Virus record (IMG/VR): IMGVR_UViG_3300024051_000138
Location: 1 to 59,985 of that record
DNA length: 59,985 nucleotides
Source: a virus
Lineage: Duplodnaviria > Caudoviricetes
Reading direction: 5' to 3' (one strand)
Shown here: piece by piece, positions 41,901-44,900 of the stretch
Layout of the letters: every line of letters begins with the position of its first letter
How positions within the stretch are numbered: position 1 is the first letter of the stretch
Translations under genes and position numbers: made by a program
Notes under the pieces: generated by a model
Told to the model about the DNA's origin: nothing
What the model saw: the letters and a program-made list of their open reading frames with translations, nothing else
The model's database searches: none

Positions 41901-44900
41901 GGTGCTTTACAGCCAGTCCATGTCCGAAGACTTGGCCCGCGAGCTGCAGAAGCTGCGCCCGCCAGCTACCAAGGAGACCGTGCGCGCCGCCGTGCGTCAA
42001 CTGGTCAATGGGCTGGGCATGCTGCCCAACCGCCTCGGGCGTGTGGTGGTTGCGTCCTCCGACGAGATCAAGCGCGACTGGCAGCCGTTGGTCGGCGACG
42101 TTTCCATGGAGGCCGAGAGCGATGCAGGCAAGGCCCAAGGCTTCTATGACCCCAACACCAAGACCGTGTTCCTGATCGCGGACCACATCAATGCGGGCGA
42201 CGAGCTCGGAGTAGTGGCGCATGAGCTGATGCACAAGCATGGCCAGGCGGTGCTGGGAGAGGATGGATGGAACCGCCTGCATGGCGCCATCGAGGGCTGG
42301 GCGAAGGCGCCAGATGGCAGCATGGAGCGCCGGGTGTACGACGAGGCGGCCACGCGCGTGCGCAAGTCCCGCCCCAAGGATGCGGCCGAGCGGGAATACT
42401 CCAGCCAGGAGCTGTTCCCCTACGCCGTGCAGGTGGCGCTGGAGATGGGCGTGAAGCCCAACATGCTGGCCCAGCCCGGCACCGTGGCGCGCTGGCTGGG
42501 CCAGGTGCGCGCGGCGCTGCGCCAGGTGTGGGACAAGATCACGCGCAAGCCCGATGCGTTCCAGGCGCAGGACTTGGTGAACCTGGCGTTCGGGATCGCG
42601 CAGCGCGAGAACCCGGAGCACGGCGGGGAGCTGGATGGCGCCTTGCAGGGACGGGGGCTGGAGCAGTTCAAGGCGCTGGATGACATCTACGCACTGCCGA
42701 AGTCCAAGGCGACAAGCATCGAACAGATCGCCCGCGACAACGGGGAAGAGGTGAAGGTGCGCACGACCGACCTCATTGGCGAGAAGCTGCACACCCTGAC
42801 CTTTGACAACGGAACCGAGATTCGCATCACGGAGCGCAAGGCAAGCCCTTACGGTCAGGACCAGCAGGTTTATGGTTTTGACTTGGTGGATGGAACGGCT
42901 GTGCCCACCCAGATTGGCCGCCCCGGGGAGAACCCCGAGGACGTTCCGCCTACTGGGGATGTCTGGCTGGATGTGTCACAGAACACGCCCGCCAAATATG
43001 GCGCGATTGCGTACAACATCGCCGCGACCTACGCGCACAACACGGGCCGAATCTTCATTGGTGACCCTGCCGGGTTGAGCGACCAGGCCCTGCGCCGGCG
43101 CACGGAGCAGATGCTGTCGAGCGCGCTGAAGTTTGGCACGACAGAGCACCTAGCCCCCCATCCAAGGCAGGTTGCCGGTGATGCCAAGCTGGGCGTTCCG
43201 CCGTTACGCTGGGTGTATGGGGATCACGTTGGCAATATCGAGCGCATGATTGACGTGTCCCTGGATGCGCTCGACAATGCCCTTCCTGATGAAGCCCGAA
43301 CCCTCTCCTTCGACCGCGCAACAGGACAATTCCGTTCCCGTGACGGACATGTGGTTCAGCCACGGGCATCTACTCTGGGGCGATCCCTCGATGACTATCG
43401 AGCAGGTGTTGGCAAAGCACAAGCGGGTTGGCGAACTCTTGCGCGAGCTGCGTACCTGCGATCCTTCCGTGGTGCTGACGGACGCGCAGAAGGATCCGGA
43501 ATACTGGACCAGTCGAGCGATGATGTCTCCCGGTTTCGAGGTGGCACAGCTGGAAGCGCATTTGCTGATCCGAAAAGCCGAATTTTCTACAGCCGCCAAG
43601 TAGCCCCCGCCGCTGACGACTACACCCCTGCCCAAGCCAGCGCCGCCGAGCGCGCCTTCGGCACCCAGAAGAAGCTGACCCCGCGCGAGAAGGCCCAGGC
43701 GTTCCGCGCCAACTTGGCCACCAAACTGCGCCAGGGGCTGGTAGACCAGTTCGCCCCCATCAAGGAAGTGAGCGAGAAGGCCTACATCCTGGCCCGCCTG
43801 TCCAAGGGCTCCGATGGAGCGGTGGAGGCGGCCCTTCTGTACGGCAAGCCGTTCCTGCGCGATGGCGTGTACGACGTGGACATCAAGGACGGCGGCTTCG
43901 CCAAGGTGCTGGCCAGCCTCAAGGGCGAAGACAAGCGCTTCCTGCAGTGGGTGGCCGCTCTGCGCGCCGAGCGCCTGAAGGCCGAGGGCAAGGAAAACCT
44001 GCTGACGGATGCCGACATCAGCGCCCTCAAAAGTCTGAATGCTGGCCGCATGGCGGACGGCGCGGCGCGCACGCTGGTGTACGCCAAGGCGCTGCAGGAG
44101 CTCAACGCCTTCAACGAGTCGGCGCTCAAGGTGGCAATGGAGTCGGGCCTGATCGACCAGGCGGCCTACGACCTGATGAAGGACCAGCCCTACGTTCCGT
44201 TCTACCGGCTCATGGAGGAAGAGGGCGGCATGCGTGGCCCGCGCTTCAGCTCCGGCCTCGTGAACCAGCAGGCCTGGAAGAAGCTCAAGGGCGGCACCGA
44301 GCAGCTCAACGCCGACTTGCTGCAGAACCTGCTGCTGAACTGGAGCCATCTCTACGCCGCGGCCGCGCGCAACCGTGCATCGCTGGAGACCATGGCGGCG
44401 GCGGACAAGATGGGCATCGTCTACCAGGTCGGCGCGGACACCAAGGGTGCAGTGAAGGTGATGCGCGACGGCGTGGCGGAGCACTGGGCCGTGGAAGACC
44501 CGTATCTGCTGGATGCCATCTCGGCCATGAGCTACGCCCCGGGTGGCCTGACGAAGGCCATGGCGCCCTTCAAGCGCCTGCTGACCTTCGGCGTGACGGT
44601 GAACCCGACGTTCAAGATTCGCAACCTGATCCGCGACAGCCTGTCGGCCATGGCCCAGGGCGACCTGAGCTACAACCCGGCCGCGAACGTGGCCAACGGC
44701 TGGAAGGCCACGAGCAAGGAGAGCCAGACCTACGCCTCGATGCTGGCATCCGGTGGGGTGATCAAGTTCGGCACGCAGGAGAACACCAACGCCTTGCGCG
44801 ACAAGATCGCCAAGCTGGGCGGCGTGGTGCTGGACGACAGCGGCTGGGGCAAGCTCAAGGGCCAGATGAAGTCCCTGTGGGAGGTGTACGAGGAGTTCGG

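Follow-up and report, generated by a model that had tools for sequence, protein, structure and literature searches.

The window analysed here is the whole of one IMG/VR provirus record (IMGVR_UViG_3300024051_000138; 59,985 bases). It carries the gene for a giant polyvalent, DarB-like protein, and our subject is one module of that protein, the Pfam domain LPD37, together with a small open reading frame (ORF) nested in the last part of the module in the +1 frame (Table 1). A Pfam search with the protein of 2374 amino acids (aa) returned two domains, LPD37 and LPD38. The LPD37 match (PF18853) covers residues 1331-1500, corresponding to nucleotides (nt) 42952-43461, with an expectation value (E) of 2.1e-50; the module itself scored 172-177 bits against a curated cut-off of 27 (E 2e-50 to 5e-52) over profile positions 72-238 of 243. 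Homology to relatives begins at 42676, and 57 of the 57 aligned relatives match LPD37. The +1 frame is open from stop to stop over 43250-43603. A first-pass annotation had pointed to a 70-aa ORF in this frame, MTIEQVLAKHKRVGELLRELRTCDP..., which runs from ATG 43391 to the TAG at 43601-43603, and the TACTCT and GGGG that it described are indeed present directly upstream of the ATG.

The codon composition of the giant gene changes over this ORF. GC content by codon position was measured in 180-nt windows; the main-frame value at third positions (GC3) is 0.85-0.98 at 42232-42681, dips mildly to 0.68-0.82 over 42772-43221, drops to 0.40-0.45 over 43267-43581 and is 0.87-0.95 past 43582. The departure from G/C-ending codons first noticed at about 42700-43600 consists of a mild dip followed by a strong drop. 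Since GC1 stays at 0.72-0.78 over the drop (GC2 0.58-0.67) while GC3 falls, the +1 frame carries the normal coding composition of the gene: read in that frame, the stretch gives about 0.62/0.42/0.75 for GC1/GC2/GC3, and the gene as a whole gives 0.71/0.50/0.81. Over 43390-43599, 41 of 70 main-frame codons end in A or T, compared with 387 of 2267 (17%) in the rest of the gene and 22 of 70 in the +1 frame, and 6 of 10 Arg codons in this stretch are CGA, compared with 7 of 153 in the remainder.

The codon phase shifts, and the +1 frame is open directly behind the LPD37 core, in the first LPD37 relatives (L002, L003 and L004), in three Erwinia phages and in a Massilia plasmid. A search with an aligned set of seven modules (A1) yielded 32 loci in bacterial genomes and 47 in viral contigs, and 65 distinct loci carry the main-frame motif GTTxH.xPH, which served as the locus anchor. 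All 65, including loci of 41-51% GC, show a drop in main-frame GC3 and, over the tail, an open +1 frame of 65-307 codons. The +1 peptides share the motif LRE..S..PFYA..A...YW, generalised as L-R/K-E..S..P-F/W-Y/H-A...Y/F-W, and seven further LPD37 loci without a match to the anchor also have both the ORF and the motif. In one of these seven, L084 (41% GC), +1 stops occur everywhere except in a single ORF of 75 codons, and an ATG follows one codon after this ORF opens. With L034 left out because a contig end cuts the locus, an open +1 frame with the motif is present in 71 of 72 informative LPD37 loci, so the ORF is conserved in homologues and not broken by stops, a check that the first-pass annotation had suggested.

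The nested ORF accompanies LPD37 whatever domain stands downstream. The domain that follows LPD37 and its tail differs among L003, L004, the Erwinia phages and the Massilia plasmid, and the earlier description of a swappable domain holds in the sense that LPD37 plus tail forms a movable module. Each of five whole bacterial genomes contains exactly one match to the +1 family, overlapping the single LPD37 locus of that genome, and no stand-alone homologue was found in these five. A profile of the family, searched among 1.84 billion representatives, matched 536 predicted proteins at E<=1e-3, most of them 47-233 aa long, and 144 at E<=1e-10. Gene callers predict a nameless protein of this family on some contigs, short and long, and in RefSeq, where a hypothetical protein of Rhodoferax, found on 26 contigs, is a match; in five phage records, three of them Erwinia phages, only the giant gene is annotated under the +1 match. 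A single-sequence search with the 70-aa peptide gave one match, P0003 (66% identical, on a 509-bp contig), which was set aside as uninformative alone.

The codons of the 65 loci were threaded onto the main-frame alignment, which shows residue by residue how the two frames share the tail. The +1 Trp (63/65) arises from a main-frame Leu written CTG in 58 loci and TTG in 5, followed in 63 of 65 by a codon that begins with G and encodes a varied residue (E 20, A 18, D 17, G 8). The +1 Pro (53/65) depends on a main-frame A (26), S (20) or T (13), 53 of these 59 written as NCC. The +1 Tyr, His and Phe arise via the rare main-frame codons CTA, GTA, TTA and ATA, and the +1 Glu (52/65) via main-frame Arg as CGA (30) or AGA (27); the main-frame codons under the +1 L-R-E are the rare CTT/GTT/ATT and CGA/AGA. 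A column that is A (33) or K (22) in the main frame gives Arg (41) or Lys (19) in the +1 frame, and a main-frame Gln written CAA in 35 loci and never CAG gives a +1 Asn in 34. Several columns, within 325-336 and 387-389, are explicable by the +1 reading only. Other columns are conserved in the main frame only: a Gly in 63/65 (GGC/GGG/GGT), a Thr in 56/65 (ACG/ACT/ACA) and an Arg in 65/65 that uses both CGA and AGA.

In a null model, the main-frame residues were fixed and synonymous codons were redrawn 300 times from the usage of each locus. Under these conditions the +1 frame was open in 16.0 +/- 2.9 of the 65 loci (maximum 24), compared with 64 observed, and the pairwise +1 identity in the tail was 0.190 +/- 0.004 compared with 0.272 observed (z 20). 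The LPD37 core, used as a control for shared ancestry, gave a +1 identity of 0.300 against 0.283 (z 5.9). When the +1 residues were fixed instead, main-frame identity was 0.304 observed against 0.195 (z 39). Over a 49-codon zone in 64 loci, the main frame is open in 64, the +1 frame in 63 (the single miss is attributed to anchoring) and the +2 frame in 17. The three antisense frames are open in just 8, 30 and 20 of these loci, and on this ground an antisense gene was rejected as the source of the pattern.

Comparisons between close relatives gave a similar picture. In the Erwinia trio, third-position change dominates every 90-nt bin except two tail bins, in which PEp14 and Pavtok differ by 11/7/6 and 5/0/4 changes at positions 1/2/3. 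The clearest pair is L003 and L068, in which all five changes in 45 dual-coded codons fall at main-frame position 1, the +1 wobble position, and the next 15-codon bin, which holds the +1 stop, has changes of 0/0/6. Across 12 independent pairs, change per site was 0.118/0.077/0.304 in the core and 0.198/0.162/0.225 in the tail, with third-position change at 476/1564 and 178/791 sites, respectively; the synonymous-site constraint that the first-pass annotation had proposed looking for is thus seen in homologues. In the same pairs, the core has 172 amino-acid and 344 silent changes in the main frame and 466 and 69 in the +1 frame, and the dual-coded zone (506 codons) has 90 and 52 in the main frame and 103 and 42 in the +1 frame. 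The share of changes silent in the +1 frame is 42/145 in the zone against 69/535 in the core. Judged from these counts, purifying selection on both frames in the zone is real but moderate.

A contig from another metagenome, independent of the record, is 98.5% identical over 42728-43851 without an indel. Among its 15 listed differences, 13 are at main-frame third positions and two are silent first positions of Leu codons. Five main-synonymous changes at 43260-43287 alter the +1 peptide, and one of them destroys ATG 43265. Two changes fall in 43300-43600: the one at 43456 is silent in both frames, and the one at 43593 leaves the main-frame residue unaltered and converts a +1 Ala, three residues before the end of that peptide, to Val.

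Both products were modelled with AlphaFold2. The main-frame module, from an alignment of 57 sequences (A3), gave a predicted local distance difference test score (pLDDT) of 85.5 and a predicted template modelling score (pTM) of 0.86. The main frame over 43391-43603 had been read as a linker rich in R, G, S and A; in the model, the tail forms helices that pack on the domain, and these, with the conserved Arg (65/65) and Gly (63/65), indicate that the tail is part of the domain structure and no loose linker. The 84-aa +1 protein, from an alignment of 59 sequences (A2), gave a pLDDT of 82.5 and a pTM of 0.67, with helices at 17-36, 50-59 and 65-80, and the modelled product is a small (about 70-108 aa) soluble three-helix protein. 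Pfam matched 0 of 59 family members at E<=0.01, a PDB sequence search with A2 gave only two chance-level rows (E 0.33 and 0.35), the ESM Atlas gave no usable match, and Foldseek with the +1 model found nothing below E 3.5. Several of the Foldseek rows were homeodomains with template modelling (TM) scores of 0.29-0.45, which is taken as a generic three-helix likeness.

We therefore consider, with a probability of about 0.8, that the locus encodes the LPD37 module of a putatively virion-packaged polyvalent protein whose last 70-90 codons (about 43300-43603) are dual-coding, and that the +1 frame is a conserved overprinted gene. The main frame finishes LPD37 with two predicted helices and then links to the next module, and the small protein would be made by its own internal initiation, in the window likeliest from ATG 43349. 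Several points weigh against this assignment. The +1 product is one predicted from sequence. No convincing Shine-Dalgarno sequence precedes any candidate ATG in the clade of the window, which makes the start in the window uncertain. The null models treat related loci as independent, and the core control is also above its null (z 5.9, against 20 in the tail), which gives the size of the shared-ancestry bias in these models. The zone evolves fast in both frames, with 90 main-frame and 103 +1 amino-acid differences in 506 codons. Finally, in L098, a divergent LPD37-like locus, the +1 frame is open but lacks the motif.

Table 1. Features of the giant gene, its LPD37 module and the nested +1-frame gene (positions in the window)
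Feature	Position	Strand	Remarks
Giant polyvalent (DarB-like) protein gene	38962..46086	+	2374 aa; from ORF list and translation
HELMH (HExxH) zincin-like motif	42220..42234	+	upstream of the LPD37 module; Pfam gives no domain there
LPD37 module, main frame	42676..43596	+	beta-rich N part, alpha/beta core, C-terminal tail; ends at IFYSR (43582-43596)
TGA closing the +1 frame upstream	43247..43249	+	inside main-frame ERMID; most relatives have a +1 stop at the same place
Overprinted +1-frame gene (candidate)	43349..43603	+	best-guess 84 aa from ATG 43349; stop TAG 43601-43603
Alternative starts of the +1 gene		+	ATG 43391 (70 aa); ATG 43277 (108 aa)
Two main-frame tail helices, GWRTLARAAYLRSFR and GILDQSSDDVSRF	43429..43539	+	inside the dual-coding zone; model helices 252-266 and 276-288; block pLDDT 73-90
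+1-frame L-R-E of the family motif	43439..43447	+	columns 325-327: L 48/65, R/K 60/65, E 52/65
+1-frame Pro	43463..43465	+	column 333; kept in at least 90% of the 59 A2 sequences
+1-frame Trp (TGG)	43505..43507	+	59/59 in A2; 63/65 in the codon alignment
LPD38 domain (PF18857), C-terminal module	45187..45720	+	Pfam E 3.1e-38; residues 2076-2253

Some family members differ in layout. On the Sphingomonas changnyeongensis plasmid pC33 (L099, 1405-1647), the annotated 80-aa hypothetical protein WP_160594039.1 belongs to the +1 family. The plasmid locus lacks the LPD37 core, stops close its main frame upstream, and its neighbours are encoded on the opposite strand; this coding sequence may be a remnant or a free-standing copy. 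In P0005 (233 aa), a metallopeptidase part with HEALGH continues in frame into the +1 peptide, an arrangement that deletion of the LPD37 core would produce. Protein-like extensions are present in P0027, P0065 and P0142, among them a repeat of the motif W.E..LP..DY..F or an additional C-terminal domain. In the Massilia-type loci (L018, L044, L047 and L090-L094), the tail is about 100 codons longer, the +1 frame is open for about 200-300 codons, and an extra conserved +1 segment reads EALPD..L.ALMK..G.S.EWMQ.LS.TRI..LL.

Start codons were compared across the loci. In the Erwinia-phage-like subfamily, 13 of 19 scanned loci have a start codon (ATG in 7, GTG in 6) at a distance of 63-64 codons upstream of the invariant Trp, and GGAG stands 7 nt upstream of it in nine of these 13, three of the nine being closely related Erwinia phages. 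L036, L083 and L084 have such an ATG 7 nt after GGAG, a single codon past the point at which the +1 frame opens, and in L053, L069, L076, L078 and L023, which belong to the clade of the window, an ATG lies within one or two codons of the frame opening. In the window, the start is probably ATG 43349, which is favoured on sequence grounds as it keeps the W...W.DPS segment found in L023, L059, L065 and L069 and lies past the unconstrained stretch; ATG 43391, the start first proposed, coincides with the beginning of helix 1 in the AlphaFold2 model but probably cuts off this conserved N-terminal segment. A start at ATG 43277 or farther upstream is unlikely given the five +1-altering changes at 43260-43287 in the 98.5%-identical contig.

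These start sites bear on the alternative that survives best, a programmed +1 ribosomal frameshift after the LPD37 core, by which some of the ribosomes on the giant ORF would change frame, terminate at 43601-43603 and release a truncated polyvalent protein that ends in another helical segment. Such a frameshift would also conserve the +1 frame as protein, the clustered rare main-frame codons (CGA in 6 of 10 Arg) would favour a slip at a CGA/ATA run, the clade of the window has no strong ribosome-binding site, and P0005 reads from an upstream metallopeptidase part in frame into the +1 peptide. We regard it as improbable, however, because the +1 frame in L036, L083 and L084 opens just ahead of a GGAG-preceded ATG, L053, L069, L076 and L078 likewise have an ATG next to the frame opening, and the copy on the Sphingomonas plasmid retains a complete ORF that begins with ATG, in a locus whose main frame is closed upstream. 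No shared slippery motif was noticed either, though no formal search was made.

The +1 frame might instead be untranslated, and its pattern might follow from selection that acts on the main frame or the nucleic acid itself, for example through a conserved rare-codon pause at the domain boundary, an RNA structure or an R/G/A/S-rich composition that leaves few +1 stops. A main frame rich in R, G, A and S has few second-position T and hence few +1 stops, off-frame ORFs are common in the high-GC window, and the region lies at a domain boundary. This account fits the data poorly and is less probable still than the frameshift: with the main-frame residues kept, only 16 of 65 loci are open on average compared with 64 observed, TGG is kept while the overlapping main-frame residue varies, and R/K, F/W/Y and Y/H exchanges appear in the +1 frame where the main frame swaps A for K or A/S/T. 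In addition, the +1 ORF holds at 41-51% GC, and AlphaFold2 obtained a confident fold from the +1 alignment.

Better-adapted codon usage is the usual criterion for the older frame of an overlapping pair, and by the codon-usage contrast the +1 frame would be the older one. This suggests that the main-frame tail arose later, by read-through when LPD37 was fused to further modules. In L021, L030, L035, L057, L076 and L084, the main ORF stops a few to some tens of codons past the +1 stop and LPD37 is the last module, which fits dual coding that arose at a former gene end. One could go on to regard the +1 ORF as a relic, a former downstream gene read through on fusion and no longer expressed, for which its more genome-like codon composition, the less adapted main-frame tail and the terminal position of LPD37 in several loci might be cited. 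We give this very little probability: among relatives with 26-54% main-frame identity, a dead frame would have gathered stops, whereas the frame is open in 64 of 65, close pairs show wobble-only change, and an origin by fusion is compatible with present function.

An assembly or sequencing frameshift, with the true protein reading the +1 peptide in frame, would explain the shift in codon phase but is ruled out by the +1 stops on both sides, the Pfam LPD37 match in the main frame up to 43461, the indel-free independent contig and about 70 relatives with the same layout. Upstream of about 42729, where the LPD37 module begins, the 98.5%-identical contig matches the opposite strand of the record and has 577 additional nt at 42641/42643 (compared over 42400-42729), and this strand switch may be a rearranged architecture or an assembly chimera.

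The overprinted gene stays strictly linked to LPD37 even where the downstream domain changes, which suggests that the function of the small protein is bound to LPD37. The small protein is tentatively viewed as a dedicated partner, either an inhibitor or antidote acting in the producing cell or lysogen or a folding or packaging helper (chaperone), an assignment for which we would claim about one chance in three. Overprinting would keep LPD37 and its small partner together while the domains of polyvalent proteins shuffle. A complex prediction with the LPD37 module (residues 1-305, 57 rows) and the +1 protein (59 rows) scored 0.01 against a mark of 0.32, a value that gives no verdict either way.

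The first-pass annotation had described the module as GNAT-like on the basis of the peptide VWLDVSQNTPAKYGAIAYNIAATYAHNTGRIFIGDPAGLSDQA, which translation confirmed to be encoded in the main frame. The domain belongs to Pfam LPD37, and the following searches gave the GNAT assignment no support: 0 of 57 LPD37 members matched acetyltransferase Pfam families even at E<=10, a PDB sequence search with A3 returned none at E<=1, and Foldseek with the LPD37 model, one of the checks that had been proposed, gave no match at E<=0.001. GNAT motif A is Q/R-x-x-G-x-G/A before helix alpha3, and it was not matched; the loop reads TPAKYGAIAY, of which the family keeps G..G...Y (G106, G109 and Y113). In VIA-align, the noise level is at Z 7-8, and a Z under 8 may mean only a common arrangement. 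In its wide search, 20 of the 50 listed rows were acetyltransferases by title, with Z 3.8-5.0 below the noise level, and the best row overall was a radical-SAM methyltransferase (Z 6.1). With VIA-align on the top 1000 of Foldseek, 17 of the 25 top rows were MYST acetyltransferases (Z 4.0-5.5 over 123-148 residues), also below that level. For the acetyltransferase fold, with its beta4-alpha3-beta5-alpha4 core, these rows are thus a weak hint from the model and not membership.

That LPD37 is an effector of acetyltransferase-like type, which enters the cell as part of the polyvalent protein and has a dedicated antidote inside its own coding sequence, is an unlikely proposal. If it is true, overprinting would be a linkage device, as proteins with shuffled domains leave no room for an adjacent immunity gene and the antidote would be inseparable from the effector. 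The small protein from a prophage could then also disarm the LPD37 of incoming relatives, giving superinfection immunity.

Several known systems resemble this arrangement in part. The Rz/Rz1 spanin genes of phage lambda consist of a small gene wholly inside a larger one in the +1 frame, and both are translated into products that cooperate. The present case likewise nests a small +1-frame gene in a larger phage gene, but the host gene encodes a 2374-aa polyvalent virion protein and is no lysis gene, and the nested protein is without a lipoprotein signal and predicted to be a soluble helical bundle; cooperation of the two products is inferred only. The overprinted genes of small phages, phiX174 E in D and B in A and MS2 L, belong to tiny genomes under size pressure. 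They share dual coding, a shifted codon phase, depressed synonymous change and one poorly adapted frame with the LPD37 locus, which in contrast lies in a 60-kb phage and is bound to one domain, moving with it between architectures.

In contact-dependent inhibition (CDI) systems, Rhs polymorphic toxins and the GNAT pairs TacT/TacA and AtaT/AtaR, a small cognate gene stands beside the toxin gene. By analogy, LPD37 would be a variable module inherited with a small protein, an analogy nearest if LPD37 is acetyltransferase-like; here, however, the small gene lies inside the module gene, and a toxin role of LPD37 is hypothetical. Programmed frameshift products of phages include the tail chaperones G/GT and T7 10A/10B. 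A second frame within a structural-module gene could similarly give an alternative C-terminus, but, unlike in those cases, no slippery site was noticed (without a formal search), and the GGAG-preceded starts of one subfamily favour separate initiation.

Overprinted genes are familiar from phages. To our knowledge, one bound to a polyvalent-protein domain and conserved across proteobacterial phages and prophages is new to print. No published description of an LPD37-nested gene was found in the literature on LPD37, polyvalent proteins and DarB, supplements excepted, and the words "overlap" and "frameshift" have 0 occurrences in the main text of Iyer et al. 2017 (PMC5512222). On the present reading, the final 50 or so positions of a curated Pfam domain would be shared with a second conserved protein that is unannotated in the five phage records. 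The main text of the same paper lists LPD1-40 as domains whose functions remain elusive, and a small protein linked to LPD37 would be a natural first reagent for learning the role of that domain. The arrangement also points to a means by which multi-domain conflict proteins in general might hold a partner gene to one domain while their domains are shuffled, and other LPD boundaries can now be scanned for codon-phase shifts.

As for its surroundings, the giant gene lies between the genes for the major head protein (33470-34579) and head closure (46355-47500), with terminase and portal upstream. The 2374-aa ORF matches PHROG 18222 with 1997 bits, and relatives in the Erwinia phages PEp14, Pavtok and Stean are labelled "DarB-like antirestriction", "DNA methylase" or "transglycosylase". 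A blastn search of 42000-44600 against phages gave no match. LPD37, LPD38 and an HExxH motif in one ORF of this length, its position in the virion module and its DarB-like relatives together resemble the polyvalent proteins of Iyer et al. 2017, and by these predicted features the host gene is a polyvalent-protein gene in the sense of the main text of that paper (PMC5512222), packaging itself being a prediction. From the same text we infer that the HELMH motif marks the polyvalent-protein metallopeptidase.

In relatives that are free of LPD37 (L006-L012, at about 3000-3090), a motif (Q/L)FSR(A/T)A stands just upstream of a shared C-terminal module, for example as QFSRAAPA, LFSRTAAPA or VQFSRAATAP, and it is similar to the IFYSR of the window. 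Together with HELMH, this recurring boundary motif could be a processing site of the polyvalent protein. Opposite the giant gene, minus-strand ORFs of 967 aa (39889-42792) and 736 aa (43204-45414) are taken as the usual shadow ORFs of a high-GC coding strand.

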